A stretch of 60,640 bases of DNA, the filler included. It is 5 parts of 5 records of this genome, joined end to end, with 100 filler letters (N's around TTAATTAATTAA, not from the genome) between each part and the next. Parts side by side here need not be neighbours in the genome. Positions count along the whole stretch, not along the records: positions 1 to 9,117 come from SRR31147125_20880; 4 more parts are not named here. One strand, written 5' to 3'. The notes under the pieces were generated by a model. The model was not told where the DNA came from and searched no databases. It saw only the letters and a program-made list of their open reading frames with translations. The translations under genes and the position numbers were made by a program. Positions within the stretch are counted from its first letter, which is position 1. Each line of letters begins with the position of its first letter. Shown one piece after another: positions 1-27,955 of the stretch.

Positions 1-1
1 C

Positions 2-310
2 GGGCTTGAAAAACTGAGGCGATGCAATTGCTCGTTATGCAGCCGCAGGAACGCGGTCGTCGCTTCCGTCGATCTGGATAATCTGAAAATCGTGAAAGGC
101 GAGGAATGCCTTTCGGTCTATACGTTCAACACGCATACCGCGAAGCACTATTTTTGCTCTAAATGCGGGATCTACACCCATCACCAGCGCCGCTCGAACC
201 CGCATGAATACGGGTTCAACATTTCATGCGTCGAGGGGGTGAAGATCGAGGACTACCAGCATATCGGTTATGTGGACGGGCGGGACAATCACCCCTCAGA
301 CAGGGCGTGA
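2..310 (+). CDS. GFA / CENP-V family Zn protein, 5' truncated by window edge
   Basis: Frame open from position 2: ...RRCNCSLCSRR...HYFCSKCGIYTHHQRRSNP...GFNISC, the CxCxxC + FCxxCG signature of the Gfa family. Confidence 0.9.
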   Translation, partial: GLEKLRRCNCSLCSRRNAVVASVDLDNLKIVKGEECLSVYTFNTHTAKHYFCSKCGIYTHHQRRSNPHEYGFNISCVEGVKIEDYQHIGYVDGRDNHPSDRA

Positions 311-452
311 AAGGGGCGTTGTCGAGGGGCGATCCGGGCATCTACCTACAGATAGATTGATTTCGGGTTCCGATGAGGGTACCCTAACGGCAGTTATTTT
401 ATCGGACTGATTTTACTGCATTTATTTTTATAACTGATTGCAGGAGCATATT

Positions 453-1445
453 ATGGATCGTGCTGGCCCGGCTTATTTCAGCCGTCAGGAAGGCGTGTGC
501 GGACAATCATTCAACACAGATAAAGCAGCGACAACGGAACAGCGGATATTTGCCGAGCTGTTCAAGCGACGAAACCAGATCGATCCCGCACAGGATCTGT
601 CGGAGAAGGCGATTGCGCATCACCTCGGGCAGATCTCAAGCATGGTCGCGCGGGCAGAACCTGTCGTGTTCGTGCTTCCCGCCTTTCCCGGAAAATCTCC
701 CAACCGGCGCAAGACGCTCAGCTACCTGCCGGATCTGGCCGAACGGCTGGCGCTTCAGGAGCTTTCGGAAATGTGCGAGGCCATCGGGCGGATCTATGCG
801 CCGGGTGCGCAGGTGCATGTGTGTTCCGACGGCTATGTGTTCTCCGATCTCGTCCACATCCCCGATGCCCATGTGCGCGAATATACCGACGAGCTTGAAA
901 GCTGGAGCGGCGAGCTGTTCCCCGACCGTTTCGTCTATTTCGACCTGAAGGACGCCTATCGCGGGCTGCCCGATCTGGACCGGATGCGCGAGGTACTGAC
1001 GCAGGATTTCGGCGAGCCGGTGGAGGCGCTCTCGGTGCAGGTGAAGGCGGACCCGGCGGCCAACGCCATGTATCGCGGCATCACCCGCTTCCTCTATGAG
1101 GACTACAAGGGCATGTCGGCCTTTGCTGACCTCTCCAACACCGCCATCCAGAAGAAGGCGCGCGCGACGGCCTATCGGGTCATCCAGCGCTCCAATGCGT
1201 GGAGTGCGCTGCTGGCCAAGCGCTATCCGCGGGCGGTACGGCTGTCGATCCATCCGCAGGGGCCCGACAGCACCAAATTCGGGATCAAGCTGGTGCCGTG
1301 CCTCGATATCTGGCGCACGCCCTGGCACTCGGTCGCCGTCAAGCGCGACGGGCAGGTGTTTCTGGAACGGCGCGCGGATGTGGAGGCCGGGGCCTGCCGG
1401 TTGATGTTCCGCGACGGGCGGCCCTGCCATTTCATCGATTTCTGA
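453..1445 (+). CDS. isnA: Isocyanide (isonitrile) synthase, PvcA/IsnA/DIT1 family, stand-alone
   Basis: Motifs LPAFPGKSPN, SDGYVFSD, RSNAW, RLSIHPQ, KFGIKL, TPWH; ATG at 453 preceded by AGGAG (442-446). Confidence 0.92.
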   Translation: MDRAGPAYFSRQEGVCGQSFNTDKAATTEQRIFAELFKRRNQIDPAQDLSEKAIAHHLGQISSMVARAEPVVFVLPAFPGKSPNRRKTLSYLPDLAERLALQELSEMCEAIGRIYAPGAQVHVCSDGYVFSDLVHIPDAHVREYTDELESWSGELFPDRFVYFDLKDAYRGLPDLDRMREVLTQDFGEPVEALSVQVKADPAANAMYRGITRFLYEDYKGMSAFADLSNTAIQKKARATAYRVIQRSNAWSALLAKRYPRAVRLSIHPQGPDSTKFGIKLVPCLDIWRTPWHSVAVKRDGQVFLERRADVEAGACRLMFRDGRPCHFIDF

Positions 1446-1487
1446 TCATTCGTTTTCATTCGTTCATTTTGCGATCGGCTTTTCATC

Positions 1488-2176
1488 ATGTTTGATATTC
1501 AGGCTGTCCTGTTCGATCTGGACGGAACCCTTGTCGATACGGTTCACGATATCGCCGCTTCCATGAATTCGCTGTTGCGCGAGATGGGAGAGGAGCCGTT
1601 CGACACTGATGATTATCGCCGCTGGATCGGCGGCGGTTCGGGCGCGATGGTGGCCCGGATCTCGCAGATGCTGGGGATAGAGGAGCCGGTGGAGAGCTTT
1701 CTGGAGCGCTACATGCAGCGCTACGGGCAGAACCTCACCACGCTCTCGCGACCCTTTGCGGGTGCCGAGGATATTCTCGCCACCTGCCGCGAACTGGATC
1801 TTCCCATCAGCGTCCTGAGCAACAAGGACCAGTGGATGGTGGACATCATCTGCCGGGAGCTGTTTCCCGATGTCGTCTTCCGCCACACCATCGGGCTCTC
1901 AAGCGCATTTCCGAAAAGCCTGATCCCACCTCCGCCCGTCATATTGCGCGCGATCTGGCGGTGAACCCGCGTCAGTGCCTCTTTGTGGGCGATACGCATG
2001 TCGATATACGCACCGCACTGGCGGCCGGGATGGCGTCGGCGGGCGTCACCTGGGGCTACGGCCTTGCCAGCGAAATCGACGAGGCGGGGCCGGATGTCAG
2101 GTTCCGGCGCATGAATGTTCTCGATCATTTCATCCGCGATCATTGCCATTCGGCCCGCAGGCGCATTTCGGCCTGA
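1488..2176 (+). CDS. HAD-family phosphatase (phosphoglycolate phosphatase-like), split by a 1-nt frameshift at about 1914-1917
   Basis: FDLDGTLVDT (motif I) and LSNK in ORF 1488-1964; KPDP and FVGDTHVD (motifs III/IV) continue in the frame of ORF 1832-2176. One extra A in CCG AAAA GCC restores ...FPKKPDP. Confidence 0.85.
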
Positions 2177-2272
2177 CCTACCCCGGAGCTGTCGCCGCGT
2201 GTGCGCCGCCATGCGTGGAACATATCGTAACCTTTTGATTGTCATTCACTTTTTAAAAAGAGGGTCATTACG

Positions 2273-2737
2273 GTGATTAAAGACATTTTCAATCTGAGGA
2301 TGGTGTCCTCGCAATACTGGACCGCCGGGCAACCGAGCGAAGAGCAGCTTGCCGATGTGGCGAAGGAGGGGTTCGATCTCGTCCTGAACATCGCCCCGCA
2401 GGACCCCCGCTACAGCCTTGAGGACGAGGAGCGGACGGTGAAGTCGCTGGGGATGGAGTATCAGCTCATTGCCATCGACTTCAAGGCGCCGACCCTTGAG
2501 GACTACGACCGCGTGGAAGCCGCGCTCATGATGGCGAAGGACAAGCGCGTTTTCATCCACTGCGCCGCCAATTACCGCGTCACGACGATCTTCGGATGTT
2601 TTGCCGTCAACCACCTCGGCTGGAGCCAGGCCGAATGGGACGACTTCATCACCGACGTCTGGAACATCTCCGAGTTCCCGATCTGGACCGAATACAAGGC
2701 CCAGCTGAAGCATCACGTGAAGGAGTTGGCGAAATGA
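2273..2737 (+). CDS. DUF442 / Blh-N type protein (PTP-like fold, HCAANYR active-site loop); phosphatase or sulfurtransferase
   Basis: AGQP, GFDLVLNI, E...GMEY and VFIHCAANYRV; the stop overlaps the next start (ATGA at 2734-2737). Confidence 0.75.
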   Translation: MIKDIFNLRMVSSQYWTAGQPSEEQLADVAKEGFDLVLNIAPQDPRYSLEDEERTVKSLGMEYQLIAIDFKAPTLEDYDRVEAALMMAKDKRVFIHCAANYRVTTIFGCFAVNHLGWSQAEWDDFITDVWNISEFPIWTEYKAQLKHHVKELAK

Positions 2738-4530
2738 ACGATCAACCGAAAATCATGGATACCGTATGTGCGGTCATCGGCTCCTTTCTGGTGAAGGGGG
2801 AAGGCGACCTGTTCGAGGGGCAAGGCAAGGCGGCGCTTTCCGCCAAGCTGAAGCCCTTCATCGACAAGGCGGAGCCGATCGAACTCGTGCTGCCCGGTTT
2901 TCCGTTCAAGTCGCTGAACTTTCATGCCAAGACGAGCGGTCCGAAGCCGGATTTCGGCGAGGTGCTGGCACTCCGGCGGCTTGAAGAGATGTGCGCGGCG
3001 ATCGATGCGGTCTATGGGCACGGGGTGCAGCTCACCATCGTCTCCGACGGCACGACCTATAACGACGTCATCGGCGTCTCGGACGAGGATCGTCAGGCCT
3101 ATAACGATGCGGTGCGCACGCTCTGGCCGAGCCGCTATTTCCGCTGGGCCACGGTGACGGATCTTGTCGGGGCTCCCGGTTCGCCGCAGGAGCTTCGCGA
3201 TGCGCTCATCGAGAAGGCGTCGCTGCCCTATGCCGACCTTGAGGCGTTCAAAAGGGCTGTGAAGGGCGATGAAGCGCTGGGCGCTGCGCATGATCGCATG
3301 TGCACTTTCCTTTACAACGATCTGCGCCCGCAGGTGGCGGATGATCTCGACGAGGACGCCTATTTCGCGGAAATCCGCGAGAAGGCCTACGAGATGATGA
3401 TCCGCGGCCTTGCGCTCAATGCGGGCGTGGAGCGGGCCTTCCCGGAGGCGGTGCGGCTGTCGGTGCATCAGTACGACAATGCGGGGCCGAAATTCTCCGT
3501 CGGGTTCCTGCCGGGCCTCGGCCATGTTTCGGCACCCTGGCACAAGGTGCCTTACCGCCATCTCGACGGGCATTTCAGCTTTGTCGATCACGCCTGGGTC
3601 GATGCCGCACGCACGCTTGCGGTCTATCGCGGCGAGCAGGTCTGGCTTTATCAGGAAAGCGATGCGGAGATCGATCCGGCGGTGCGGCTTTCTATCGTCA
3701 AGCCGCCGCAGTTCGGGCTGCTGGTGGAACTCGATGCGCCGGAAAAGGTGAAGCTGCTCACGCCGCGGCTGACGCGCAGCCTTGCGGATTTCTTCTCCTT
3801 CATCTGCGTGCGCGGCTGTCACTTTGCGGAGCGGGAGGATCTCGTCGATTACTGCCTGCCGTTCGGCGATATCTACCAGTGGCACTTCGGGCCCGTTCAT
3901 GTGGTGCAGCCGGAGGAAAAGCCGAAGGGCTTCGTGCAGTCGCTGGAAAAGACGCCCATCCACTGGGATCTTTCCATGCTGCCGCTTGATCATGAGCGGG
4001 TGAAGCAGGACGAGTGGTTCTGCGCCGATCTCTTCATGCTCTATTGCAAGACGCCGCCGCAGAAGGGCGAGGGCGAGACGACCCTTGTCGACGGGCGGGA
4101 AATCCTGCGCGAGGTGGGGCCGGAGACGGTGGAGAAATGGCGCAACACCAATATCACCTACAACACCAAGATGACCTATTTCGGCGGTCATCCGCGCAAG
4201 TATCCCCTGGTTCACGAGCATCCGGAAACGGGCGAGCCGATCCTGCGCTATCAGGAGGGCAGCAAGTCGGAATACCAGACCTTCTCGCAGGAGGTGGAAG
4301 GCCTGAGCCAGTCCGACAGCGACGCCTTCCTGGAGGAAATGAACCGGCGCATCTATGAAGCGAAGGTTTGCTACGCGCACCCGTGGGAGGCCGGCGACAT
4401 GGTGATCGTGGAGAATTACCTTGCTCTCCACGGGCGCAATCCGATGTCGGAGGCATCGAACAAGCGCGAACTGTGGCGTGTCCAGACGATCCCCGACATG
4501 CCGGTCGCCAACCGGTCGGCGGCCGAGTAG
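2734..4530 (+). CDS. Fused isocyanide synthase + TauD-like Fe(II)/2-oxoglutarate oxygenase (IsnA-IsnB / PvcA-PvcB fusion)
   Basis: N-terminal half: LPGFPFKS, SDGTTYND, RLSVHQY, APWH. C-terminal half: HWD...GETTLVDG...HPWEAGDMVIVENYLALHGR...RELWRVQ (HxD...H facial triad). Likely start ATG 2734 with AGGAG at 2721-2725. Confidence 0.9.
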   Translation: MNDQPKIMDTVCAVIGSFLVKGEGDLFEGQGKAALSAKLKPFIDKAEPIELVLPGFPFKSLNFHAKTSGPKPDFGEVLALRRLEEMCAAIDAVYGHGVQLTIVSDGTTYNDVIGVSDEDRQAYNDAVRTLWPSRYFRWATVTDLVGAPGSPQELRDALIEKASLPYADLEAFKRAVKGDEALGAAHDRMCTFLYNDLRPQVADDLDEDAYFAEIREKAYEMMIRGLALNAGVERAFPEAVRLSVHQYDNAGPKFSVGFLPGLGHVSAPWHKVPYRHLDGHFSFVDHAWVDAARTLAVYRGEQVWLYQESDAEIDPAVRLSIVKPPQFGLLVELDAPEKVKLLTPRLTRSLADFFSFICVRGCHFAEREDLVDYCLPFGDIYQWHFGPVHVVQPEEKPKGFVQSLEKTPIHWDLSMLPLDHERVKQDEWFCADLFMLYCKTPPQKGEGETTLVDGREILREVGPETVEKWRNTNITYNTKMTYFGGHPRKYPLVHEHPETGEPILRYQEGSKSEYQTFSQEVEGLSQSDSDAFLEEMNRRIYEAKVCYAHPWEAGDMVIVENYLALHGRNPMSEASNKRELWRVQTIPDMPVANRSAAE

Positions 4531-4535
4531 CCGCC

Positions 4536-5744
4536 ATGTCCGGTAAACGAGCCCTGTTCTTCGCGGAAGCGGTCACGCTGGCCCATGTGGTGCGTTCGTA
4601 CCAACTGGCCCGCAGCCTCCTCCACGAAGGCTATGAGGTGCATTTCGCCGTCGCTCCGCGTTTCCGGTTCGTCTATGACGAGCCGGAAATCCGGATGCAC
4701 TGGATCTCCTCCAAGTCGGGGCAGACCTTTCTCGACAATGTGGAGACGGGGCGCAGGCTTTATCGCGCCGATGAGCTGATCGGCTACGCCGGGGAAGAAC
4801 TGGAAGTCATCGAGGCGGTGCAGCCCGACTGGGTGCTCGGCGACTTCCGGCATTCGCTGTCGATCAGCGCGAAGCTTGCGGGCGTTCCGTATCTCAACCT
4901 GATCAACACGTACTGGAGCCCGCACTATGCGGGCAAGCGTCTGCCGGTGCCGGAGCTTCGCCAGTTCCCGCTCAGCCGTTTCTCGATGAGCGAGATCCTG
5001 ATGCCGGTGCTGACGCCGATCATCTTCAAGGCGCAAGGCCAGCCGCTTAACGAGGCGCGGCGGCATTTCAACCTTAAACCTTTCGACCATTGCCTGCACG
5101 GCTGGGCGGGGGGCGACCAGACGATCTTCTGCGATGTGCCGGAATGTTTCGACGGCTATGAACAGGCCGCGACCGAGCATTTCATCGGTCATGTCACGTG
5201 GGAGCCGTCGGTCGGTACGGATGAGACGGACAGGTGGCTGCAAGCCATGGCGCGGGAGCCTCACATCTACGTGGCGCTCGGGTCCTCCGGCGGGCGGGGC
5301 TTGCGGGATCGTGTCGTGGAGCGGGTGATCGCTTCCGGCTATCCTGTCTGCGTTTCCGGCGTGCCGGATAATGAGCGGCCCTCACATTGGTCAGACCGTG
5401 TTCTCTCGGCGGAGTTCGTCTCCGGCTCGGCGATCGCGGCTGAGGCCGGGCTCGTCATCACCAATGGCGGAAGCCCCACCACCTATCAGGCGCTCAACAC
5501 CGGAACGCCCGTCATCGGCATTCCCGCCAACATGGATCAGGTGTTGTGCATCCACCATGTCGACAAGCTCGATGCGGGCCGGATCATCCGTCCGTGGGAG
5601 GTAGAAAAGCCGCGCTTCAAGCGGACGGTGGAAGACTTGATGGAAGGCGAGTGTCGCGCGCAAGCCATTCGCTGGGCGGCGTGGTCAAAGGGCATGTCCT
5701 ATCGCTCCAGATTTCTGGAGGTGCTGGAAAAGACACTCCCGTGA
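4536..5744 (+). CDS. GT-B (GT1/MGT-like) glycosyltransferase of the type found with isocyanide synthases
   Basis: EAVTLAHVVR at the N terminus, YVALGSSG, VITNGGSPTTYQAL.GTPVIGIPANMDQ nucleotide-sugar binding motif; starts 5 nt after the fusion gene. Confidence 0.85.
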   Translation: MSGKRALFFAEAVTLAHVVRSYQLARSLLHEGYEVHFAVAPRFRFVYDEPEIRMHWISSKSGQTFLDNVETGRRLYRADELIGYAGEELEVIEAVQPDWVLGDFRHSLSISAKLAGVPYLNLINTYWSPHYAGKRLPVPELRQFPLSRFSMSEILMPVLTPIIFKAQGQPLNEARRHFNLKPFDHCLHGWAGGDQTIFCDVPECFDGYEQAATEHFIGHVTWEPSVGTDETDRWLQAMAREPHIYVALGSSGGRGLRDRVVERVIASGYPVCVSGVPDNERPSHWSDRVLSAEFVSGSAIAAEAGLVITNGGSPTTYQALNTGTPVIGIPANMDQVLCIHHVDKLDAGRIIRPWEVEKPRFKRTVEDLMEGECRAQAIRWAAWSKGMSYRSRFLEVLEKTLP

Positions 5745-5824
5745 AGATTTCAGCCGGTGTCGTTTCCAAGATGCCGGTTCAGGTTTGAATAGCTCATTAT
5801 TTCAATGGTTTCAGGATATCTGTT

Positions 5825-8200
5825 GTGACGAGCATTGGTGAGGTTGGCGCGACCCGTGAACGGGGTGTCGCGCTTCGGGTTTCGCTTGGCAGGCTGGCAA
5901 CGGGTGCGGTGCTCGGGCTTCTCTGTCTTCTGATCTGGGTGCCTTTTGCGCCCGCCATGATCAACTGGGGGCTCGACCCCTCGTGGATGGCCGGGCTCAA
6001 TCAGGCCGTGGCTCAGGGGCTCGTCTTCGGTCGGGACGTGATCTTCACATTCGGGCCCTATGGCAGCGTCTATTCGCTGACCTATCACCCCGCGACCCAC
6101 AGCCTGACATTGGCGGCGTGCATGGTGCTGGCGACGGGGCATTTCTGGGCGCTGTCGCGTGTGTTCCTGAGCGGGCGGCGCAATGTCTTTGCCGCCTTCG
6201 TTGTGATGTTGCTGGGGCTCTTTTCGCGCGATGCGCTGATCCTGAGCTATCCGCTTCTCTTCGTCTTTGCGCTGACGAGGATGCGGGACAAGGCATCTGC
6301 GCGGAACGGTGTGTGGGATGACGCGGGGCTGGTTGCCGCTGTCGCGGGGCTGGCGCTTCTTTTGCTCGTGAAAGGCTCGATCCTGCCGCTGGTCGGTTTT
6401 GCCGTCATCGCCGCGGCTGTCATATTCGCCATGACCGGGGCGTTCGCCCGGCTGGCCGTGCTTGTCGTCGTCTTTGCGGCGGCGCTTGCGGGGTTCTGGG
6501 TGTGGGCGGGGCAGCCGCTGGACGCGCTGCCCGCCTATCTCGCCGGGCTCGGGCGCGTCATTTCCGGCTATTCGGAAGCGATGGCGGTTCCGGGACGGTC
6601 GTTCGATTTCGTGCTCTTTGCGGCGGTCTTCGTGCCTGCGCTGGTGGTCGGGCTCTTCCAGCGAGGGGCCTTGTGGCAATGGGGCGCGCGCGTCGCGATG
6701 CTGGGTCTTCTGAGCTTCGTCGCCTTCAAGGCGGGGTTCGTGCGGCATGACTGGCATGCCACCATTGCGCTTGCGACAGCCGTGGTGTTGCTGGCAGTCG
6801 TTCTGGCGCGCTCGCGCCTGCCACTGGTCGTCTCGACCCTCTGGCTGATTGCGGCTTCGGGCGCATGGTACGAGGTAGAGCGGGCCAATCAGCAGATCCC
6901 GGCGCATTTCCTGATGCTTGCCAAGGTGAAGCAGGCGATTGTCGATCCGGTTCTGGTGCTGCCCGCGCTGGCGCGAAACCCGGATTATCTGGAAGAGCGC
7001 TTTGAGCGCACTCTCGCCGAGCTTCAGCGCCAATTCCGCTTTCCCGAATTCGACGGGCCTGCGGATGTCTATGATTTCTGGCAGTCGGATTTGCTTGCCT
7101 CGGGCTCGGAATGGTCGCCGCGCCCGACGCTTCAAAGCTATTCCGCCTATACGGGCTTTCTGGCTGATGCCAATGCGCGGCATCTGGAAGGCGCGGGTGC
7201 ACCTGAGGTGATCGCTTTCCGCATCACGCCGATTGACGGCAATTATCCGACGCTTGCCGACGGTGCCTCATGGCCGATGCTGCTGGGCGGGTACGAGCCC
7301 TATGATTTCGGCGAGGGTTTTCTCTACTTGCGCCGTCGAGCCGGGGCGACCGCGCCGGGCATGACGCCAGTGGGCAAGGGCGTCGCCGCCATGGGCGAGG
7401 ATATCGCGCTGCCCGCAACGGGTGGGCCGGTCTTCGTGCAGCTTGCCGTTTCCAAAACGGCCTATGGCAAGGCGAAGGAGCTGTTCTTCAAGCTTGAGAA
7501 CCTGCGTATCGAGGTGACGACGGCGGACGGGCGGGTGCGCGTCTTCCGCCATGTCTCGGGCATGGGCGAGGCGGGTTTCCTCATCTCGCCGCTGGTGGAG
7601 AATTCAACCGAGATGAACGCGCTTTACGGCCATGCGGACAAGCTTGCGAAGAAGCGGGTGGTGAGCTTCCGGCTGATCGCTCCCGATGGATCCATGCGCG
7701 AATGGGAGGATGCGGTCGGCTATGAATTCCGGGGCATCGATCCGGGCGGGATCGCATCCTCGTCCGTGCGCCCGGCTCATGCGCCTGTCGTCGCGAAGGA
7801 AGACGCGATCACCGGGCTTGCGGAAAGTGCGGAAGGGTGTTTCGGCGGGCTCGATGTGCTCAACGATCTCTACCCGGCGCCGGCCTCCTTCCGCATCGAC
7901 GCCATCCTGTCGGTGATCGGGTGGATAAAGGTTCCCGGTGCGACGCGCGAAGCGCCGGGGGAGGTGTTCCTGACCCTCACGGACAAGGCGAGCGGGCGGG
8001 AAGACTGGATCAGGACCCGCCGCGCTCCACGCCTCGATGTGAAGACGCTCATGGGCGATCCCTTCGGTCCCGATCTCGGTTATGACGCCTATGCGGATAT
8101 CGCGCCCTATTCCGGCGACCAGACGCTGGGCGTCGCCTGGGCGAACGAGACGGCGTGGGGGCGGTGCCCGTCGTTTGAACGCGAACTCAGATTTCCCTGA
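5825..8200 (+). CDS. Large polytopic membrane protein with extracytoplasmic C-terminal domains, possibly involved in surface-glycan modification
   Basis: About 10-12 hydrophobic segments in the first ~350 aa with a GLDPSW...FTFGPYG loop, then a soluble region; lies directly upstream of rfbA. Function inferred only. Confidence 0.6.
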   Translation: MTSIGEVGATRERGVALRVSLGRLATGAVLGLLCLLIWVPFAPAMINWGLDPSWMAGLNQAVAQGLVFGRDVIFTFGPYGSVYSLTYHPATHSLTLAACMVLATGHFWALSRVFLSGRRNVFAAFVVMLLGLFSRDALILSYPLLFVFALTRMRDKASARNGVWDDAGLVAAVAGLALLLLVKGSILPLVGFAVIAAAVIFAMTGAFARLAVLVVVFAAALAGFWVWAGQPLDALPAYLAGLGRVISGYSEAMAVPGRSFDFVLFAAVFVPALVVGLFQRGALWQWGARVAMLGLLSFVAFKAGFVRHDWHATIALATAVVLLAVVLARSRLPLVVSTLWLIAASGAWYEVERANQQIPAHFLMLAKVKQAIVDPVLVLPALARNPDYLEERFERTLAELQRQFRFPEFDGPADVYDFWQSDLLASGSEWSPRPTLQSYSAYTGFLADANARHLEGAGAPEVIAFRITPIDGNYPTLADGASWPMLLGGYEPYDFGEGFLYLRRRAGATAPGMTPVGKGVAAMGEDIALPATGGPVFVQLAVSKTAYGKAKELFFKLENLRIEVTTADGRVRVFRHVSGMGEAGFLISPLVENSTEMNALYGHADKLAKKRVVSFRLIAPDGSMREWEDAVGYEFRGIDPGGIASSSVRPAHAPVVAKEDAITGLAESAEGCFGGLDVLNDLYPAPASFRIDAILSVIGWIKVPGATREAPGEVFLTLTDKASGREDWIRTRRAPRLDVKTLMGDPFGPDLGYDAYADIAPYSGDQTLGVAWANETAWGRCPSFERELRFP

Positions 8201-8244
8201 GAGATTTCAGATTTTGATTTAGACATTTTATTCATGAGGTTGTC

Positions 8245-9117
8245 ATGAAAGGAATAATTCTCGCCGGAGGCAGCGGCACGCGCCTTCATCCGATGACAAT
8301 CAGCGTCTCCAAGCAGTTGCTGCCGGTCTATGACAAGCCGATGATCTACTATCCGCTGACAACGCTCATGCTGGCGGGCATCCGCGATATTCTGGTCATC
8401 TCCACGCCGCACGACATGCCGCTTTTCCAGCGGCTCCTGGGTGACGGTTCCCAGTGGGGAATTTCGTTGTCCTATGCCGTGCAGCCGCGCCCGGAAGGGC
8501 TGGCGCAGGCCTATGTGATCGCAGCCGATTTCATCGGTGATCAGTCGTCCTGCCTGATCCTTGGCGACAACATCTATTTCGGCCACGGATTGCCGGGACT
8601 GCTGCGCAAGGCGCGCAACATGGAGCGCGGGGCGACCGTCTTCGCCTATCATGTGGCCGACCCGGAACGCTATGGCGTGGTGGAGTTCGATACCGGGCTT
8701 CGCGCCGTGTCGCTGGAGGAAAAACCTGTGAAGCCGCGCTCCAACTGGGCGGTGACGGGGCTCTATTTTTACGACAATCGCGTCGTCGATATCGCGGCGA
8801 ACCTGAAGCCTTCCGCACGCGGCGAGCTTGAGATCACCGACGTCAACCGGACCTATCTGGAGTGGGGCGAACTCAATGTCTCCATCATGGGGCGCGGCTA
8901 TGCCTGGCTTGATACGGGCACGCCGGAAAGCCTGATCGAGGCCAGCGAATATGTGCGCACGCTGGAGAAACGGCAGGGTTTCAAGATCGCCTGTCCGGAG
9001 GAAATCGCGCTGACGCTCGGCTATCAGAGCGAGGCGGAATTCGAGGGGCAGGTGGAGCGTTACGCCAAGAGCCAGTACGGCGAATATCTGAAATCGGTCG
9101 CCATGATGCGGGCGGGG
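8245..9117 (+). CDS. rfbA: Glucose-1-phosphate thymidylyltransferase (3' end at contig break)
   Basis: [16 protein letters not shown]...[17 protein letters not shown]...EEKP...GLYFYD...RGELEITD...WLDTGT. Confidence 0.97.
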
Positions 9118-9217
9118 NNNNNNNNNNNNNNNNNNNNNNNNNNNNNNNNNNNNNNNNNNNNTTAATTAATTAANNNNNNNNNNNNNNNNNNNNNNNNNNN
9201 NNNNNNNNNNNNNNNNN
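9118..9217. other. Artificial contig spacer (N44 + TTAATTAATTAA + N44)
   Basis: Six-frame stop linker flanked by Ns; base composition changes abruptly across it. Confidence 0.99.
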
Positions 9218-17083: not shown

Positions 17084-17183
17084 NNNNNNNNNNNNNNNNN
17101 NNNNNNNNNNNNNNNNNNNNNNNNNNNTTAATTAATTAANNNNNNNNNNNNNNNNNNNNNNNNNNNNNNNNNNNNNNNNNNNN
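17084..17183. other. Artificial contig spacer
   Basis: N44-TTAATTAATTAA-N44. Confidence 0.99.
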
Positions 17184-17518: not shown

Positions 17519-18343
17519 ATGGAAAATATTTATCTGCCGCAACTTGCCAGCATTGATCATATTACGGATGAAACGCCTGATACAAAAACCTTTACCCTGC
17601 ATTTTTTGGATCCGGGTTTTAATGATAAATTCCGCTTTAAATCAGGCCAATTTGCAGAGATCTCCGTGTTCGGTATCGGTGAAGCGCCCTTTGGTTTCAG
17701 CTCAAATCCGTCCAGACATGGGAGTTTTGACGTTACTGTTCGAGCCATCGGCAGTGTAACGGATGCCATGCACAAGATGAAACCTGGAGATATTCTGGGT
17801 GTACGTGCACCGCTTGGGAATCATTTTCCTTTTGAAGAAGCCCAGGGATATGATATTCTTTTTGTTGCCGGCGGTATAGGACTGCCACCACTAAAATCAC
17901 TCATAGAACCAATGCTGGATAAACGAGGTGATTTTGGAGAATTCACTATTTTATATGGTTCTCGTACACCACAAGACCTTGTTTTTAAACCCATTTTAAA
18001 CGAATGGACGGAACGCACAGACGTGAATGTTTTACAAACAGTGGATCGAGCCGATAATGGTTGGACTGGAAATGTTGGAGTTGTAACAACCCTTTTTGAA
18101 AATATAAAATTGGACGTATCAAAAACAGTTGCTTTTACGTGCGGCCCCCCTATTATGATCCGTTTTGTTATTCAGGAATTACTGGCAATGGGTTTATCTG
18201 AGCGCTGCATTATTTCAACTCTTGAAAGACAAATGAAATGCGGTGTTGGAAAATGCGGGCACTGTGCAATTGGCAATCAATATATTTGTGTCGATGGTCC
18301 GGTTTTTTCATATGAACAAATGAAAAAATTACCTGAAAAATAA
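17519..18343 (+). CDS. AsrB / sulfhydrogenase-gamma / FlxA-like FAD, NAD(P) and 2Fe-2S protein
   Basis: GQF...GEAPF, AGGIGLPPL, YGSRTP, CGPPIM, ERQMKCGVGKCGHC...CVDGPVF. Confidence 0.9.
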   Translation: MENIYLPQLASIDHITDETPDTKTFTLHFLDPGFNDKFRFKSGQFAEISVFGIGEAPFGFSSNPSRHGSFDVTVRAIGSVTDAMHKMKPGDILGVRAPLGNHFPFEEAQGYDILFVAGGIGLPPLKSLIEPMLDKRGDFGEFTILYGSRTPQDLVFKPILNEWTERTDVNVLQTVDRADNGWTGNVGVVTTLFENIKLDVSKTVAFTCGPPIMIRFVIQELLAMGLSERCIISTLERQMKCGVGKCGHCAIGNQYICVDGPVFSYEQMKKLPEK

Positions 18344-18346
18344 TTT

Positions 18347-18847
18347 ATGAGTGGATTGGATTTCACATCACGTTTACGTTCATTACTGGATGGAAAAAAA
18401 GTCGTATTGATGGGAATTGGTAATCCGTATAGAGGTGATGATGGTGTCGGTACTCTTTTAGCGGAAAAAATCGGATCCCATCATCATTTCGTCAGTATTG
18501 TCTGTGAAGAAATGCCTGAGAATTATACAGGCCTGGTTCGTGCAGAAAATCCGGATGTTATTCTTTTCGCTGACGCGATAAATTTTGGAGGAAAACCCGG
18601 TCAAATCGTCTTTCTTGATCCTAAAAATCTAACAGACGATCGGTTTTCTTCACATCGTCCATCATTACGATTGATCATGGATTATCTGAAAATTGAGACT
18701 AACGCAGAGGTCATATTGTTAGGCATACAGCCAGGAACGATAAACCATACATCTCAATTAAGCCCTGCTATTGAAGAAACATTAAATAAGCTTGTAAAAA
18801 TAGTGGTGGAGCTATCCCAAACTATCAATGAGGATTGGACTCGATGA
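18347..18847 (+). CDS. hycI: Hydrogenase maturation endopeptidase (HycI-like)
   Basis: GIGNPYRGDDGVG, PEN, DA, SSH, LLGIQP. Confidence 0.88.
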   Translation: MSGLDFTSRLRSLLDGKKVVLMGIGNPYRGDDGVGTLLAEKIGSHHHFVSIVCEEMPENYTGLVRAENPDVILFADAINFGGKPGQIVFLDPKNLTDDRFSSHRPSLRLIMDYLKIETNAEVILLGIQPGTINHTSQLSPAIEETLNKLVKIVVELSQTINEDWTR

Positions 18848-20304
18848 TAACATTTATCATGTTAATGATTCTTTTTCCTGCTCTGGGAGCTGTTCTGGCC
18901 GGATTAACAAAACGTAAATTAAGTGATTTAATTGCCTTCTCAAGTGTTACACTTATGTTTATAGTAGCTCTTGTTTTTGTCGTTTCTAATGGATTTAATC
19001 AATTTGTGAAAAATGTCCCTATCGGGTTACCCTGGCTAAATGATCTAGGAGTCTATGGTTTATTTGGCTACCAGATTGATAGTCTGTCTCTGATCTTGCT
19101 TTTGGTAGTTGTCACTCTGGGATTCCTTGTTGTTCTTTACGGGCTCGGATATCTCGGTGTCGGCAACAAAGAACATTCATCAGCCGAAGGTAAAGAACGG
19201 CATCATTTTTGGATGCTTTTGTTTATAGCTTCTATGATTGGAGTGGCCATTTCTCCGAACCTTTTACAACTCTATGTTTTTTGGGAGATGACGACACTTT
19301 GTTCCTGGGCTCTTATTTCACATTATCGTGATGACAAATCGTTACGAGCCGGCTTTAAGGCTCTGCTTATGACTTTTTCAGGAGGCCTTTTCTTTGCCCT
19401 GGCCCTGGTAATTATTTTTGTAAATACACATAGTTTTGAATTTTCAGCTCTTAATGAATTGTCCCCTCAACTTCGTGGTTGGATATTCCTCTTTTTTCTT
19501 ATTGCGGCCTGGGCCAAATCAGCACAAATTCCATTTTTCACCTGGCTGCCTGATGCCATGGCAGCTCCAACAACTGTTTCCATGTACCTGCATGCTGCTG
19601 CGATGGTAAAAGCAGGTGTTTTCCTCATTGCCAGAATCGCTATTGCCAACTCTTCCCTTTCTTTTGGTTCGGGACTTTTGGTAGGCATTATGGCTGTTTT
19701 AACAATGCTGATTTCTGTTTATCTCTTCTTTTATCAGGATGATCTCAAACGGCTGCTTGCCTATTCCACAATTGCCCATTTGAGTTACGTTTTATTAGGT
19801 GTTGGATTAGGTATAATGGGATCTGTAACTGGCTACCGCGGTGGAGTCATGCATATTATGAATCATGGGGTTGGTAAAGGTTTGCTTTTTCTTTGTGTGG
19901 GTGCTATAGCATACTCTACCGGTACTCGAAGTATAAAAGAATTAGGTGGTCTCGCTAAAAAATCACCTGTTATAGCTGTTGCTTTTTTTGCAGGCATGTT
20001 TGCTATTCTTGGCGTTCCACCCTTTTCAGGATTTTGGAGTAAATTTTATCTTCTAATTGGCGCAATCGACGTGGGCGGCACAGTCGGATGGCTTTTACTC
20101 ATTCCTTTTTTGCTTGAAATTATTGTCGCATTTGCATGGTTTCTGCGAGTCGGGCACTCTGTCTTTTTTGGTGCTGTAACACCGGCGCTCGCAAATAACA
20201 GTAAATTACCTTTTACTATTTCTGTGCCGCTCGTTGTAATGACCATTCTTACATTGGTGGCTCCTTTTATTGCCTTGTCACTGGTTAATTATATTGTTCA
20301 ATAG
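18844..20304 (+). CDS. hyfD: Antiporter-like membrane subunit of group 4 hydrogenase (HyfD/NuoL-like)
   Basis: WEMTTLCSWALI, AKSAQIPF..WLPDAMAAPT.VS.YLHAAAMVKAGVFL, DLKRLLAYSTI; ATG 18844 overlaps the hycI stop. Confidence 0.82.
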   Translation: MITFIMLMILFPALGAVLAGLTKRKLSDLIAFSSVTLMFIVALVFVVSNGFNQFVKNVPIGLPWLNDLGVYGLFGYQIDSLSLILLLVVVTLGFLVVLYGLGYLGVGNKEHSSAEGKERHHFWMLLFIASMIGVAISPNLLQLYVFWEMTTLCSWALISHYRDDKSLRAGFKALLMTFSGGLFFALALVIIFVNTHSFEFSALNELSPQLRGWIFLFFLIAAWAKSAQIPFFTWLPDAMAAPTTVSMYLHAAAMVKAGVFLIARIAIANSSLSFGSGLLVGIMAVLTMLISVYLFFYQDDLKRLLAYSTIAHLSYVLLGVGLGIMGSVTGYRGGVMHIMNHGVGKGLLFLCVGAIAYSTGTRSIKELGGLAKKSPVIAVAFFAGMFAILGVPPFSGFWSKFYLLIGAIDVGGTVGWLLLIPFLLEIIVAFAWFLRVGHSVFFGAVTPALANNSKLPFTISVPLVVMTILTLVAPFIALSLVNYIVQ

Positions 20305-20355
20305 GCATTTTAAAAGAGTCTTTTTTTTCATTTTATCCGTAAGAAGGATACATCA

Positions 20356-22418
20356 ATGAATTCAATAACACTTTTTCAATATTCTGTCGGCTTTTTATTA
20401 CTCGGAGCATTGACAACCTTTTTACTGTCACGACAGCGTCAGTTGATCAGCAAACTTGCTTTTGTTTTTGCCTTTATTTCATCAATCGGTATTTTCTACA
20501 TTGTCATGGATGTTTTTCTTTACGGTCCAATAGAGACCTCTCAACCTCTATGGCAGCTGCCAGACTTAATGCCAGCTTGCTTATCAGAATAGATTTTCTC
20601 AGCGCTGTTTTTTTGACTCTTGTGGCAATTATTAGTATTCTCGCCACTCTGTATGCCTACCAGTTTTTAAAATTACCGGTGTTTAAAGAATTTAGCCTGG
20701 GTCGATTCTATTCCCTGCTTTTGGTCTTTTTTGCAGCCGTCTTGTCCATCGTTGTCATGGCTGATATGTTTTTCTTTTTTATTTTCTGGGAGATCATGAC
20801 CCTCTCATCCTATGCTCTTGTCATATTCAATAATACCCGCAAAGAATATCTCAAAGCTGGTTTTAAATACTTTTTCATAACTCATATCGCAACGGTTCTT
20901 ATGTTTATTGGTGCGATTATTCTGTATTTACATGGTGATTCTTTTTCTTTTAAGGATATTGGCGCTACAATGTCGGTATTGCTACAAACAAATCCCAATC
21001 TCCTCCACCTTGCTCTCTTGTTTTTCTTTATCGGATTCTCCACAAAAGCAGGCATTTTACCTATGGGAGACTGGTTACCCGATGCATACCCCTCAGCACC
21101 AACACCTGCCGGAGCGGCATTTGCTGGAATTATGTCGAAACTTGGCATTTATGGTTTGCTTCGTGTTTTTCTTTTCATTCTACCTATTTCATCTATTTGC
21201 CGTAATTGGGGTATATTTATAGCCATAATGGGCATCATTTCAATATTTGTTGGTTCTCTGTCAGCACTGATGCAGGATGGAGCCAAACGCTTGCTATCAT
21301 TTTCAATCATTGGACAAATGGGTTACCTCTTATTGGGTATAGGTGCCACATTATACGTTCTTGAGCAAAATCGAGTACTGGCCTTTATCATGCTGGTGGC
21401 AACGCTCTTTCATCTGATTAACAATGTTTTCTTTAAAGCAAATCTGTTCTTTAATGCCGGCACCATATACTATCGTACAGGTTCAGAAAACCTGAGCGAA
21501 ATAGGCGGTTTGGGTCGAATTATGCCATTAACGGCTGTTACAGCTATTATTGCTGCCTTTTCTATGTCTGGCGTTCCCCTATTTGCAGGTTTTTCCAGTA
21601 AATGGATGTATTTTATCACAACGGTCAACATTGGACTTGGCTCACCTGCCATTATGGGTTTCTCCATAGTAGCTCTTTTTATATCGGTCGTCACATTAGC
21701 CTATTCTATTAAATTTTTTGGCGCTGCTTTTTTTGGCAAATTCCATCCGGGTAAAAACATGACTAACAAAAAGACGCCTTTATCAATGCAGATTCCGCAG
21801 ATTGTGTTAGCTTTTTTTGCTGTATTGCCAGGATTATTGCCCCTTTTATTTATAAAACCGTTGGGACAAACAGTCGCATCTTTATTAACTGATGTCCCGG
21901 ATCCATTTCGCTCGAACACTGTCTTTAGCGGAATAACCATTCCATTTGGAGAAAACACATTCGTAACCTGGAATCCAATCCTTTTGTCCATTGTAGGCAT
22001 TATCGCCTTTTTGATTGCATTTTGGTTTTTCAGAGCAGGAGCCGCACCAAGGCGAGTTGATTCCACCTGGTATTGTGGTGAAGAACACACAGACGAAGAG
22101 GTTTTTTATCCCTCTTTAAATTTTTATAAATCATTTACCTCTATGCTTCGGCTCAGAATAGGTAATTTTGAGCAGGAAGGTGTCTATCCAAAATTAAAAT
22201 ATCCATCAATTACCTTTTCAGAAAAGGACATTTTGAAAAGAGTGTTAAATATCGACAAATGGCTTTACGATCCTATTGTCAAAGGTTTTATGTTCACTAT
22301 GCATAAATTTAGCGCCTTACATAGTGGCGTTCCACATGTCTATTTACTCTGGTTGGTTATCGGCGCTTTGGCAGCGATAGCTGTCTTATTTTTACTTACT
22401 GCTAACGGTGCCCAATAA
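20356..22418 (+). CDS. hyfB: Antiporter-like membrane subunit (HyfB/HycC-like), frameshifted near 20557-20565
   Basis: ORF 20356-20592 gives the N terminus and 20550-22418 the remainder: WEIMTLSSY, KAGILPMGDWLPDAYP.APTP, TWYCG, LHSG.PHVYL. Confidence 0.8.
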
Positions 22419-22482
22419 TTTTTATTGTCAGTTGCAAATAAAAAAGATTATCCATTATTTTCCAATTTAGGAGGAAAACCTG

Positions 22483-24168: not shown

Positions 24169-24247
24169 AATACGAATAATTCATGAAACAGATGCCTGGG
24201 AAGAAGATTCTAAAACACGGGCATCCTATCGAAGTCATGGAGAAATA

Positions 24248-25164: not shown

Positions 25165-25265
25165 TTTAAAACGAGATTTCTTTTAGTTTTGTATTCAAGA
25201 ATTTTATATCCACGACTCTACATATTCAAAGTAAAATGTGCTGAACCTTTTTAAGCGGATTTAAC

Positions 25266-25760
25266 ATGTTTAAAGCAAAAATCAAAGAAGCGGCTATTTG
25301 TTTCTCAAATCCTCGTGTAACCTTGCCTTATCCATTTGGTGAAGGTTCTGAAATTCCGGAAGGATTCAGAGGCAAGATTGATATTGATGAAACGAAATGT
25401 ATTGCGTGCGGAGGATGTGCTAATGTATGTCCTTCACGGCTCATCCGATTCTATGATAATAATATTGAGACGCGTATGGAATTTATTCTGGATCGGTGCA
25501 CGTATTGTGGTCGATGCGCAGAGGTGTGTCCTGAGGAAGCCATTCAGATGACTCTCGAGTTCGAGACAGCAACCAATGATAAAACAGATCTCTATATCGA
25601 ACAAAATCTCTACATGGCGACCTGTGCCAGATGCGGCCGTTGTTTTGAAACTGAAAATGCCATCGACCGTATCCCCACACGACGTCACAGAGAAGGACGG
25701 AATTATCTCGGCCCATCCATGCCGTACGGAGCACCCAAAGTAAAGGAGGCAGGTAAATGA
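25266..25760 (+). CDS. hyfH: 2x[4Fe-4S] subunit (HyfH/HycF/NuoI-like)
   Basis: TLPYPF, FRGK, CIACGGCANVCP, CTYCGRCAEVCP, CARCGRC. Confidence 0.88.
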   Translation: MFKAKIKEAAICFSNPRVTLPYPFGEGSEIPEGFRGKIDIDETKCIACGGCANVCPSRLIRFYDNNIETRMEFILDRCTYCGRCAEVCPEEAIQMTLEFETATNDKTDLYIEQNLYMATCARCGRCFETENAIDRIPTRRHREGRNYLGPSMPYGAPKVKEAGK

Positions 25761-26422: not shown

Positions 26423-26433
26423 CGAGGTTACTT

Positions 26434-27954: not shown

Positions 27955-27955
27955 T

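Follow-up and report, generated by a model that had tools for sequence, protein, structure and literature searches.

The closest described relative of the locus analyzed here is the spg cluster, known from Burkholderia gladioli and from B. stagnalis (Dose et al. 2021, PMC8252389), in which spgA, C, D, E and F lie colinear and on the same strand with our genes for a stand-alone isocyanide synthase (ICS1), a DUF442 protein, a second synthase domain fused to a TauD oxygenase (ICS2-TauD), a glycosyltransferase (GT) and a membrane protein; the DUF442 member is called a 'tyrosine phosphatase' in spg. Its product, the isothiocyanate glycoside sinapigladioside, is labelled by the nitrogen and C3 of tyrosine and by a glucose-derived carbon (PMC8252389). 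Knock-out of spgA or of spgD, each alone, abolishes sinapigladioside, which carries a single tyrosine-derived N-C unit, and knock-outs of spgC and spgF leave it unaffected (PMC8252389); these silent phenotypes speak against the DUF442 and membrane proteins being essential. As the spgD knock-out removed both domains of the fusion, it says nothing on the part played by ICS2 itself.

The rhabduscin and byelyankacin clusters of Xenorhabdus, Photorhabdus and Enterobacter follow the same logic, from tyrosine isonitrile to vinyl isonitrile to phenol glycoside (PMC8252389). As described (PMC8252389), these clusters have separate isnA and isnB genes plus a GT, and do without a second synthase, DUF442, HAD or membrane protein. 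PvcA and PvcB of Pseudomonas aeruginosa, known from paerucumarin, match ICS1 (PvcA, 3e59, E 1.1e-68) and the TauD domain (PvcB, 3eat, E 4.3e-22), but pvcC/D-type genes are absent from our cluster and the oxygenase is here fused to the second synthase domain. Ribulose-5-phosphate serves as the carbon donor of isonitrile formation (PMC7949033). The DUF442 rhodanese domains linked to Blh and SQR (PMC5823870, PMC9163753) resemble the DUF442 protein studied here in having a PTP fold with a catalytic cysteine, although the match is weak (34 bits). In the sequences seen, DUF442 proteins of the present type are instead stand-alone or fused to ICS-TauD, and never to a dioxygenase or SQR.

Origin of the cluster contig

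The window, that is, the whole 60,640-nt stretch of DNA analyzed, consists of five contigs joined by N spacers. The cluster contig (1-9117) ends at an artificial, unstranded junction (9118-9217, N44-TTAATTAATTAA-N44), and nothing to the right of 9217 is part of the cluster. Its GC content is 0.612, versus 0.396-0.454 in the other four contigs, which look KSB1-like. A genomic island was considered for the GC jump at 9.1 kb and ruled out, the position being that of the contig junction. Over its whole length, the cluster contig is colinear with a 3.3-Mb contig of a Breoghania metagenome-assembled genome (89.7% nucleotide identity, four indels). Positions 1-9117 are likely a contig of a Breoghania-like alphaproteobacterium, with the front half of a cluster of the spg (sinapigladioside) type on it. 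The pairing of a Breoghania-like contig with a KSB1-like remainder makes the host attribution doubtful, and the contig is probably foreign to the genome with which it was binned. The host of the cluster would be a marine-type alphaproteobacterium, as opposed to Burkholderia for spg.

The comparison set comprised 68 related loci, one genome per species, obtained from a scan with two peptide patterns; Vibrio, from which the sequence-only reading took its example of a stand-alone IsnA beside an IsnA/B fusion (V. cholerae), is absent from this set. Relative to L001, the closest relative, all genes show dN/dS values of 0.06-0.27, indicating purifying selection. An Rfam scan of 1-9117 matched no family, and promoter and terminator signals did not rise above those in shuffled sequences.

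Gene organization and relation to the spg cluster

All genes of the contig lie on the plus strand. It opens with the 3' part of a flanking GFA-family gene (glutathione-dependent formaldehyde-activating enzyme family; 2-310, PF04828, E 6e-7), which has an ortholog in L001 at 7185-7580 (E 4e-12); by tblastn, a GFA gene lies beside ICS1 in one of the 68 loci, that of L001. The five co-oriented genes that the sequence-only reading had placed at 453-5744 were all recovered. They encode ICS1, an SpgA-like stand-alone synthase of the IsnA/PvcA type (453-1445, PF05141, E 1.4e-77), with AGGAG 7 nt upstream of its ATG; a frameshifted HAD-IA hydrolase, phosphoglycolate-phosphatase-like (1488-2176, PF13419 and PF13242 in two frames); an SpgC-like DUF442/PTP-fold protein (2273-2737); the SpgD-like ICS2-TauD fusion (2731-4530, PF05141 and PF02668), which shares its first 7 nt with the end of the DUF442 gene; and an SpgE-like natural-product glycosyltransferase of the GT1 family (GT-B; 4536-5744; GT1 structures E 3.6e-7; TIGR01426 E 7.4e-12, below cut-off). 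The conserved unit runs past 5744 to the contig end at 9117, taking in an SpgF-like membrane protein of 791 residues (5825-8200) and RmlA, a glucose-1-phosphate thymidylyltransferase (8245-9117, TIGR01207, 490 bits, cut-off 360.65), of which 291 codons are present and the stop codon is lost at the contig end.

This five-gene combination had not been recognized from the sequence alone. Its order recurs in three of the 68 loci (L001, L002 and L014). The order ICS1, DUF442, ICS2-TauD, GT and membrane protein is colinear with spgA, C, D, E and F, a gene-for-gene match to a characterized biosynthetic cluster, which the sequence-only reading had itself named as grounds for refuting it. The B. stagnalis locus L053 reproduces the published spg gene list (Table S1 of PMC8252389), and its spgA, C, D, E and F products are 51, 37, 35, 43 and 38% identical to ICS1, DUF442, ICS2-TauD, GT and the membrane protein, respectively. 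Counterparts of spgB (MFS), spgH (HAD-UbiA) and spgI (DprE1-like) occur in the Breoghania relatives L001 and L002, at 48, 37 and 49% identity to L053; the window lacks them, as the cluster contig stops short of them at 9117. The arrangements also differ. In spg, the MFS gene spgB lies between the synthase and DUF442 genes, where our cluster has the HAD gene, whereas in the Breoghania relatives the MFS gene is found further downstream, beyond RmlA and a TetR gene. RmlA occupies the same position in L001 and L002 as here, inside the cluster, unlike in spg. In L001 and L002, the 10 kb examined downstream contain neither spgG nor spgJ-L (O-methyl-xylose), and the sugar decoration is therefore probably not that of spg. 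As found, the region is nothing out of the ordinary and adds one more copy of a cluster type already in the literature.

A GT gene lies directly 3' of the fusion in 8 of the 68 loci. The acceptor of the GT encoded here is uncertain, since SpgE of B. gladioli has been linked to addition of the second sugar, xylose, rather than to the phenol. For the membrane protein, no match was found in Pfam or NCBIfam. A crude hydropathy scan indicates a hydrophobic N-terminal region of ∼340 residues with six hydrophobic stretches, one of them 72 residues long, and the C-terminal half is beta-rich. The best five PDB matches of a low-confidence model (pLDDT 62) were to EmbB, AftD, EmbC and EmbA-EmbB, with ArnT at rank 10 and TM-scores of only 0.16-0.37; in the Atlas, the protein falls in unnamed clusters with a weak PMT_2 lead. 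It is possibly a GT-C-type glycosyltransferase using a lipid-linked sugar.

A canonical and a divergent synthase domain

Both synthases exceed the PF05141 cut-off of 26.4 bits, ICS1 with 261 bits and ICS2 with 193 bits (E 9.5e-57, residues 42-293). The divergent ICS2 domain (∼nt 2854-3609) forms the N-terminal part of the fusion, and an Fe(II)/2-oxoglutarate oxygenase of the IsnB/PvcB type (∼nt 3772-4482; PF02668, E 1.5e-33, 117 bits, residues 348-584) forms the C-terminal part; in the structure search, the fusion matched 7tcl, PvcA and PvcB. The TauD domain has the iron triad HxD...H and the 2-oxoglutarate Arg (H411, D413, H567 and R569), and all 36 sequences compared keep these four residues. 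The fusion is 89% identical to a Breoghania protein and 36% identical to the 611-residue fusion of B. gladioli (P0057). The motif differences between the two synthases to which the sequence-only reading drew attention (SNAW, RLSIHPQ and TPWH versus GLAL, RLSVHQY and APWH) are seen in the translations.

Against PvcA, ICS1 scores 235 bits and ICS2 87 bits. With 239.3 and 86.5 bits, both fall below the 600-bit cut-off of NF045653, the equivalog model for the L-tyrosine isonitrile synthase PvcA; judged by sequence, they are related to PvcA but are not PvcA equivalogs. ICS1 is the canonical member of the pair by the same measure and is taken here as the working tyrosine isonitrile synthase. In the tree, it belongs to a clade of orthologs (support 0.944) that comprises 17 ICS1 sequences and P0066, and its dN/dS relative to L001 is 0.12. 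As near-invariant ICS residues we took 19 positions with 87-99% conservation across 148 canonical sequences; the supplement to PMC8252389 describes the active-site residues as unknown. ICS1 keeps all 19.

ICS2 keeps 19 of 19 as well, versus 16 of 19 in the Burkholderia proteins P0056 and P0057. Of 47 conserved columns, 36 have the same consensus in ICS2 as in the 148 canonical sequences, and the 11 divergent columns (e.g. R212S, P268Q, W287V/A and G209K) are mostly conserved inside the ICS2 clade. Together with a dN/dS of 0.13 relative to L001, on par with ICS1, these features point to a conserved, selected paralog and not a decayed relic. Given the full set of near-invariant residues, a purely non-catalytic role for ICS2 is an assumption. 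Sister cyanobacterial fusions show several of the changes seen in ICS2, and no second ICS lies within 10 kb of them, which makes it probable that domains of this type are catalytically competent. A literature search for the isonitrile synthases of known structure (9dh4, 9dhm and 9dhn) turned up no paper. A prediction of the complex between DUF442 (154 residues) and ICS2-TauD (599 residues), run without alignments, returned a score of 0.00 and a mark of 0.34, values that speak neither for nor against an interaction.

These properties bear on the earlier proposal that both synthase domains work, each on an amine of its own (an aromatic amino acid for one, a second amino acid or amino sugar for the other), to give a di-isocyanide or hybrid glycoside. 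The intact residue set, the probable competence of the cyanobacterial fusions, a selective constraint equal to that on ICS1 and the clade-wide conservation of the divergent columns, as expected of altered specificity and not of decay, are all consistent with it. The sole characterized relative speaks against it: both spgA and spgD are needed there for a single tyrosine-derived N-C unit, which leaves the di-isocyanide idea unsupported, and the synthase domain of SpgD fails to compensate for the loss of SpgA (PMC8252389). Moreover, no gene for a second amine (aminotransferase or amino-sugar) occurs in the window or in L001 and L002, and ICS2 is fused to an oxygenase of the tyrosine-isonitrile type. 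We consider action on two amines quite improbable. ICS2 would rather lack the power to replace ICS1 and act as a substrate-binding or partner domain feeding the fused oxygenase. As the domain is not degenerate, it may nonetheless have a second catalytic role, a point in favor of the sequence-only reading.

A HAD or DUF442 gene as third partner

The HAD gene has an N-terminal part in frame 0 (PF13419, E 2.7e-16) and a C-terminal part in another frame (1832-2176; PF13242, E 3.2e-10; HAD_2 profile positions 133-178). The DxDGT nucleophile motif is present (FDLDGT), but an intact frame is absent. The break is a 1-nt deletion at ∼1910 (TTTCCC to TTTCC) relative to the intact 229-residue ortholog (L001:8757-9446), and it is the only in-gene indel of the contig relative to L001. 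Both halves are stop-free in their own frames, with dN/dS values of 0.11 and 0.26.

Alpha-, Beta- and Gammaproteobacteria all contribute to the 58 loci, out of 68, that have both ICS1 and the fusion. In 51 of these 58, the two are separated by HAD (41 loci), by DUF442 (6 loci) or by both (4 loci). In-frame fusions onto ICS2-TauD occur for HAD in L006 and L042 and for DUF442 in L012 and L064, and 18 database proteins carry an in-frame fusion of HAD or DUF442 to ICS2-TauD. The two genes thus belong to a conserved two-synthase cassette, of which they provide a nearly constant third partner. A literature search covering isonitriles of Dickeya, Pseudomonas entomophila, P. donghuensis and Chromobacterium, with passages of PMC13647977 and PMC13005658, brought up no mention of this cassette.

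The Pfam matches of the DUF442 protein are below gathering (PF04273, E 6.8e-4, 20.4 bits versus 26.1), and the solved protein 3gxg, a 'putative phosphatase (DUF442)', matches at E 1.5e-15. NF040641, the model containing the Blh sulfur-transferase domain, matches at E 1.4e-8 with 34 bits, its cut-off of 625 being that of a two-domain model. In the loop HCAANYR (Cys97-X4-Arg102), H96, C97, N100 and R102 occur without exception in the 23 ICS-linked homologs, and Asp69 is conserved in 22 of the 23; aligned with the C-X5-R loop of the PTP 25xa, this C-X4-R loop shows a one-residue gap. The Atlas places the protein between PF22741 and PF04273, a placement that does not tell phosphatase from sulfurtransferase. 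DUF442 is a candidate isonitrile sulfurtransferase or phosphatase, and it is a better candidate than HAD for adding sulfur to an isonitrile. A literature search for a published isonitrile sulfurtransferase found none.

In the rhodanese/Cdc25 literature, loop length is described as deciding between sulfur and phosphate. The short and invariant C-X4-R loop would then favor a dedicated sulfurtransferase, in which a Cys97 persulfide would convert the vinyl isonitrile to the isothiocyanate, a cryptic step left unassigned in the sinapigladioside study. The match to the Blh model takes in the whole of its sulfur-transferase domain, and the one such cluster with a known product yields an isothiocyanate. 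Class-V aminotransferases are the fold family of cysteine desulfurases, and such a gene directly follows the DUF442-bearing fusion in L064 and lies one gene further in L012; it is, however, found in only 2 of 10 DUF442-bearing loci and was ruled out as a constant partner. For Xylella Blh and Cupriavidus SQR, the DUF442 domain has been proven to act as a rhodanese (thiosulfate:cyanide sulfurtransferase; PMC5823870, PMC9163753). Against a sulfurtransferase stands the spgC knock-out, which left sinapigladioside unaffected (PMC8252389); the rhodaneses of an E. coli host mask DUF442 loss, which could explain this silent phenotype, and SpgC does not appear among the rhodanese candidates listed by the authors of PMC8252389. 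Every Pfam and NCBIfam score of the protein lies under its cut-off, the retained D69 is a general acid of the PTP type and fits a phosphatase, and at 41 loci the HAD phosphatase is alone in the slot. On balance, we regard a sulfurtransferase function of DUF442 as rather unlikely.

HAD and DUF442 could alternatively be interchangeable phosphatases, needed to clear a phosphorylated by-product or intermediate that the ribulose-5-phosphate-dependent reaction would generate only where two synthases are at work. The two genes have a common slot in which either alone is enough in most loci, each is repeatedly fused to the N-terminus of ICS2-TauD, HAD is phosphoglycolate-phosphatase-like with its DxDGT motif, DUF442 retains the PTP Asp, Cys and Arg, and single-synthase clusters are reported to need only IsnA and IsnB (PMC8252389). 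Yet no phosphorylated intermediate is known, both genes are kept in four loci, a C-X4-R loop is atypical of phosphatases, and HAD is broken in this contig while the rest of the cluster is intact. The phosphatase interpretation is offered tentatively, as a somewhat doubtful one.

Proposed pathway and implications

By analogy with spg, we have good reason to expect that the window holds the front half of a cluster of this type, with a glycosylated vinyl isonitrile or isothiocyanate as its putative product. Genetics and product are established in Burkholderia only; combining them with the gene identities, synteny, residue conservation and purifying selection observed here, we infer the following chemistry for the organism with this cluster. 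ICS1 would convert L-tyrosine to its isonitrile with ribulose-5-phosphate as carbon donor, and the TauD/IsnB domain would remove the carboxylate and desaturate the product to 4-(2-isocyanovinyl)phenol. The GT1 enzyme would then glycosylate the phenol or a sugar already on it, with the neighboring RmlA supplying a dTDP-hexose-derived sugar. Where the cluster is complete, as in the relatives, next would come an MFS exporter and, for lipid-linked pentose, a module of HAD-UbiA, a DprE1-like protein and the GT-C-like membrane protein. The end product would be the glycosylated vinyl isonitrile or, as in Burkholderia, the corresponding isothiocyanate. The isonitrile glycoside logic of the sequence-only reading holds for an aromatic cluster of the IsnA/IsnB/GT type with a stand-alone synthase, a synthase-oxygenase fusion, a frameshifted HAD and a DUF442-type protein; the di-isocyanide is not supported.

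New at this locus are an ICS2 domain that has not decayed, the HAD/DUF442 slot with its recurrence across the two-synthase loci, and the invariant HCxxNxR (C-X4-R) loop of DUF442. In a more far-reaching and, in our estimate, unlikely interpretation, ICS1, HAD or DUF442, and ICS2-TauD would form a distinct two-synthase machine, in which ICS2 is catalytically alive with a role of its own and DUF442 adds sulfur to the isonitrile to give bacterial isothiocyanates; the Breoghania cluster, with its undegraded ICS2, would then be a better model than that of Burkholderia. The value of the locus is comparative: the two-synthase cassette is widespread, its second synthase domain is under selection, and a HAD or DUF442 protein is its near-constant partner. 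Two questions about sinapigladioside, which enzyme adds the sulfur and why there are two synthases, can now be tested with named genes.

Gene content and relation to the sinapigladioside cluster

The cluster contig carries eight closely spaced genes across window positions 1-9117, all on the + strand. At 2-310 lies the 3' portion of a gene from the GFA (formaldehyde-activating enzyme) family. It is followed by ICS1, a stand-alone isocyanide synthase (453-1445; PF05141, E 1.4e-77) with AGGAG 7 nt upstream of its ATG, an HAD-IA hydrolase (1488-2176), a DUF442/PTP-fold protein (2273-2737), and a fusion of a second synthase domain, ICS2, to a TauD domain (2731-4530; PF05141, E 9.5e-57, and PF02668, E 1.5e-33), whose start overlaps the DUF442 stop by 7 nt. 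Downstream lie a GT1-type glycosyltransferase (4536-5744), a 791-residue membrane protein (5825-8200) that returned no family match in domain-family searches, and RmlA (8245-9117; TIGR01207, 490 bits). RmlA spans 291 codons and is complete but for its stop codon; the longer ORF at 8245..9165 is an artefact that reads through the Ns of a spacer. The HAD gene is readable in two frames only, and alignment with its closest relative, the Breoghania locus L001, traces the break to one base missing from a C-run near 1910, the sole within-gene indel relative to L001 across 9.1 kb. ORFs and domain searches thereby bear out the five co-oriented genes that a sequence-only reading had placed at 453..5744, the frameshifted HAD included.

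Querying with 36 aligned fusion proteins yielded 68 related loci, among which L053 (B. stagnalis) reproduces the sinapigladioside (spg) gene list published in Table S1 of PMC8252389. Its genes encode IsnA, MFS, DUF442, IsnA-IsnB fusion, GT, a large membrane protein, a methyltransferase, HAD-UbiA, an FAD oxidase, an SDR, and epimerase/dehydratase-type and mutase-type enzymes. The window's ICS1, DUF442, fusion, glycosyltransferase and membrane protein follow the order of spgA, C, D, E and F, with 51, 37, 35, 43 and 38% identity to L053, respectively. In the Breoghania loci L001 and L002, covered to 10 kb on each side, RmlA is followed by a TetR gene, an MFS gene (48% identity to spgB), HAD-UbiA (37% to spgH) and an FAD enzyme resembling DprE1 (49% to spgI); the window's own copy of the cluster is incomplete, its contig ending with RmlA. 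In the spg cluster the MFS gene, spgB, stands between IsnA and DUF442, whereas in the Breoghania relatives it comes after RmlA and the TetR gene. The exact order ICS1-HAD-DUF442-fusion-GT recurs in 3/68 loci (L001, L002 and L014, an Arenicella MAG). The sequence-only reading did not recognise this five-gene combination; its interpretation gives way to the ordered match with the characterised spg genes, the very kind of correspondence that it had itself named as refuting it.

In Burkholderia, the isothiocyanato-vinyl-phenol core of sinapigladioside derives from the nitrogen and C3 of tyrosine plus one glucose-derived carbon (PMC8252389). Knock-out of spgA or spgD abolished the product, that of spgE, G, H, J, K or L left a rhamnoside without xylose, and that of spgB, C, F, I or Z had no effect; the authors identified no sulfur transferase among the spg cluster genes (PMC8252389).

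In the window, ICS1 is directly preceded by the GFA-family gene, an arrangement shared, among the 68 loci, with L001 only (7185-7580; 1/68). Formaldehyde is a proposed co-product of IsnA-type synthases, in view of which the placement could be either meaningful or incidental.

Contig assignment

Spacers of the form N44-TTAATTAATTAA-N44 at 9118-9217, 17084-17183, 28390-28489 and 40523-40622 identify the window as five concatenated contigs, so any gene or ORF crossing a spacer is an artefact. The cluster contig has a GC content of 61.2%, versus 39.6-45.4% in the other four. It is colinear over its entire length with a 3.3-Mb MAG contig of Breoghania (L001; Alphaproteobacteria, Hyphomicrobiales), with 89.7% nucleotide identity and four indels in the alignment, and Breoghania proteins are 89-94% identical to the window's fusion protein. 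On the other contigs lie genes for GH92, Mbh/Mrp-type hydrogenase subunits, sigma-54 regulators and a glucan phosphorylase (54784-57360) whose best named relatives belong to candidate division KSB1 (56-62% identity), the best unnamed matches reaching 66-69%. Given the GC jump and the differing taxonomic signals, the cluster should not be credited to the organism of the remaining window, and its contig is probably mis-binned, that is, bin contamination. At 17519-28389, a gene resembling sulfhydrogenase gamma is accompanied by several for Mrp/Mbh-type membrane subunits (hydrogenase-4 D/B-like), a set that resembles a membrane-bound hydrogenase or an antiporter-like complex belonging to the low-GC organism.

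The two synthase domains

By sequence comparison, ICS1 is the canonical synthase of the two, scoring 235 bits against PvcA (ICS2, 87) and 239 bits against NF045653 (ICS2, 87). It groups tightly with its ICS1 orthologs from 16 other loci (clade support 0.944), in a tree built without the named reference synthases IsnA, WelI, XanB, Dit1 and CrmA and hence without named outgroups. Residues were compared between 148 canonical synthases (147/150 library representatives plus ICS1; three dropped for short matches) and 53 ICS2 domains (52/57 plus the window's own; five dropped for short matches, including P0056 and P0057, Burkholderia SpgD-type proteins that were counted again for the near-invariant positions). 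Conservation in the canonical set reaches 85% or more at 47 columns; there the ICS2 consensus is the same in 36 and different in 11 (L101I, V129T, G209K, R212S, F213Y, S247G, I266V, P268Q, G277T, W287V/A and T289S/A). The window's ICS2 keeps 19/19 of the near-invariant positions examined, mostly polar or aromatic, and the other proteobacterial ICS2 domains inspected keep 18-19; P0056 and P0057 have lost three, and P0054 and P0055 four. The synthase domains of these Burkholderia proteins (P0054-P0057) sit on long branches.

Comparison with L001 gives dN/dS values of 0.13 in ICS2, 0.12 in ICS1 and 0.09 in the TauD domain. In the tree, eight cyanobacterial fusions and one Alteromonadaceae fusion join the ICS2 domains in a single clade (support 0.847); these fusions already carry several of the 'non-canonical' residues of ICS2, and no second synthase was found within 10 kb of them. 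The PMC8252389 supplement, which states the active-site residues to be unknown, suggests from motif differences that the SpgD synthase domain 'might be inactive'. Judged by the near-invariant residues kept, the low dN/dS and the residues shared with single-synthase fusions, this suggestion is weaker still for the window's ICS2 lineage, and the published proposal may be limited to Burkholderia. In the spg cluster, the loss of product on spgA knock-out shows that the ICS2 domain is unable to stand in for ICS1; the spgD knock-out removed both domains, synthase and oxygenase (PMC8252389). The sequence-only reading had the two synthases act on different amines to yield a di-isocyanide or an otherwise new glycoside. 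The motif differences that it quoted between the domains are found in the translations, but the related spg product has a tyrosine core with a single glucose-derived carbon, and a di-isocyanide is unlikely.

Pseudomonas frederiksbergensis 36C6 (NZ_MOBM01000038.1) shows two ICS1-HAD-fusion cassettes (L029 and L030) ~127 kb apart in opposite orientation. Their matches agree exactly in coordinates and identities, and the contig bears the title 'Joined_contig'; the pair reflects either a genuine inverted duplication or the joining of contigs during assembly. In L017, L019, L020, L022 and L046 (Chromobacterium, Xenophilus), the ICS2-TauD region follows ICS1 by ~50 nt (L046: ~100 nt) and both HAD and DUF442 are absent; the tblastn match spans ~2.5 kb, possibly representing a three-domain ICS-ICS-TauD protein.

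HAD and DUF442 between the synthases

Across the 68 loci, profile searches found both HAD and DUF442 in four (L001, L002, L012 and L014), HAD alone in 41, DUF442 alone in six (L005, L050-L053 and L064) and neither in 17, nine of these being fusion-only loci and one a truncated contig. Where ICS1 and the fusion occur together, one or both genes are present in 51/58 loci, without exception co-oriented with the two synthases and located between them. In-frame fusions involve HAD in L006 and L042 and DUF442 in L012 and L064, and database proteins with the same architectures number six (HAD-ICS-TauD) and twelve (DUF442-ICS-TauD). Class-V aminotransferase genes lie downstream of the DUF442-ICS-TauD fusions of L064 (11493-13019; Erwinia), directly after the fusion, and L012 (12203-13651; Pseudoalteromonas), after an acyl-CoA-dehydrogenase-like gene; none was found in the remaining eight DUF442-bearing loci. 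Class-V aminotransferases are the fold family of cysteine desulfurases.

Within the ICS-linked DUF442 set (n=23), H96, C97, N100 and R102 are present in 23/23 and D69 in 22/23. In the HCxxNxR loop, Cys and Arg are separated by four residues, which makes it one residue shorter than the C-X5-R loop of 25xa, a dual-specificity phosphatase; the solved DUF442 protein 3gxg has the same loop. Loop length serves as a rule for telling rhodanese and Cdc25 apart, and conversion of cyanide to thiocyanate is a close chemical analogue of that of isonitrile to isothiocyanate. This analogy, the invariant loop and the rhodanese activity of DUF442 domains elsewhere make the window's DUF442 a candidate, if a doubtful one, for the sulfur step. 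Such activity was measured for the DUF442 domains of Xylella Blh and of a Cupriavidus SQR, and loss of these domains is masked by host rhodaneses (PMC5823870, PMC9163753). Against a sulfur role, the spgC knock-out is silent (PMC8252389), DUF442 family scores are below threshold, the PTP-type Asp (D69) is conserved, and an HAD phosphatase alone fills the slot in many loci; a phosphatase role for both HAD and DUF442, itself tentative, is at least as likely.

Proposed sugar attachment and pathway

The glycosyltransferase (4536-5744) is a GT1 enzyme, and its Burkholderia counterpart SpgE is given in PMC8252389 as sharing 40% identity with the mycobacterial PGL/p-HBAD glycosyltransferase. Since RmlA adjoins it, a dTDP-hexose-derived donor is indicated. 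The N-terminal third of the membrane protein is hydrophobic, a crude hydropathy scan showing six hydrophobic stretches there, one of 72 aa. The five best PDB matches to its model (pLDDT 62, four-sequence alignment) are EmbB, AftD, EmbC and EmbA-EmbB, with ArnT at rank 10, although TM-scores for this low-confidence model are only 0.16-0.37; the Atlas gives a weak PMT_2 lead. HAD-UbiA and DprE1-like genes accompany the SpgF-like protein at L001:18712-21539, L002:19036-21791 and L053:16409-19194, the spgH-like gene being decaprenyl-phosphate phosphoribosyltransferase-like and the spgI-like gene DprE1-like. Together with the membrane-protein model, these genes suggest, as a lead only, that spg-type clusters may transfer a pentose from a lipid-linked donor by means of a GT-C transferase, as in the mycobacterial arabinose pathway. 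The silent spgF and spgI knock-outs stand against this lead (PMC8252389).

In the proposed pathway, ICS1 would convert tyrosine and ribulose-5-phosphate, the carbon donor described in PMC7949033, into tyrosine isonitrile; the TauD domain, whose H411, D413, H567 and R569 are invariant across the 36 fusion proteins, would catalyse decarboxylative desaturation; and the glycosyltransferase would then glycosylate the product. This general scheme, in which ICS1, TauD and GT yield a vinyl isonitrile glycoside or its isothiocyanate, is likely; the isothiocyanate is a sizeable possibility as the end product rather than the expected one.
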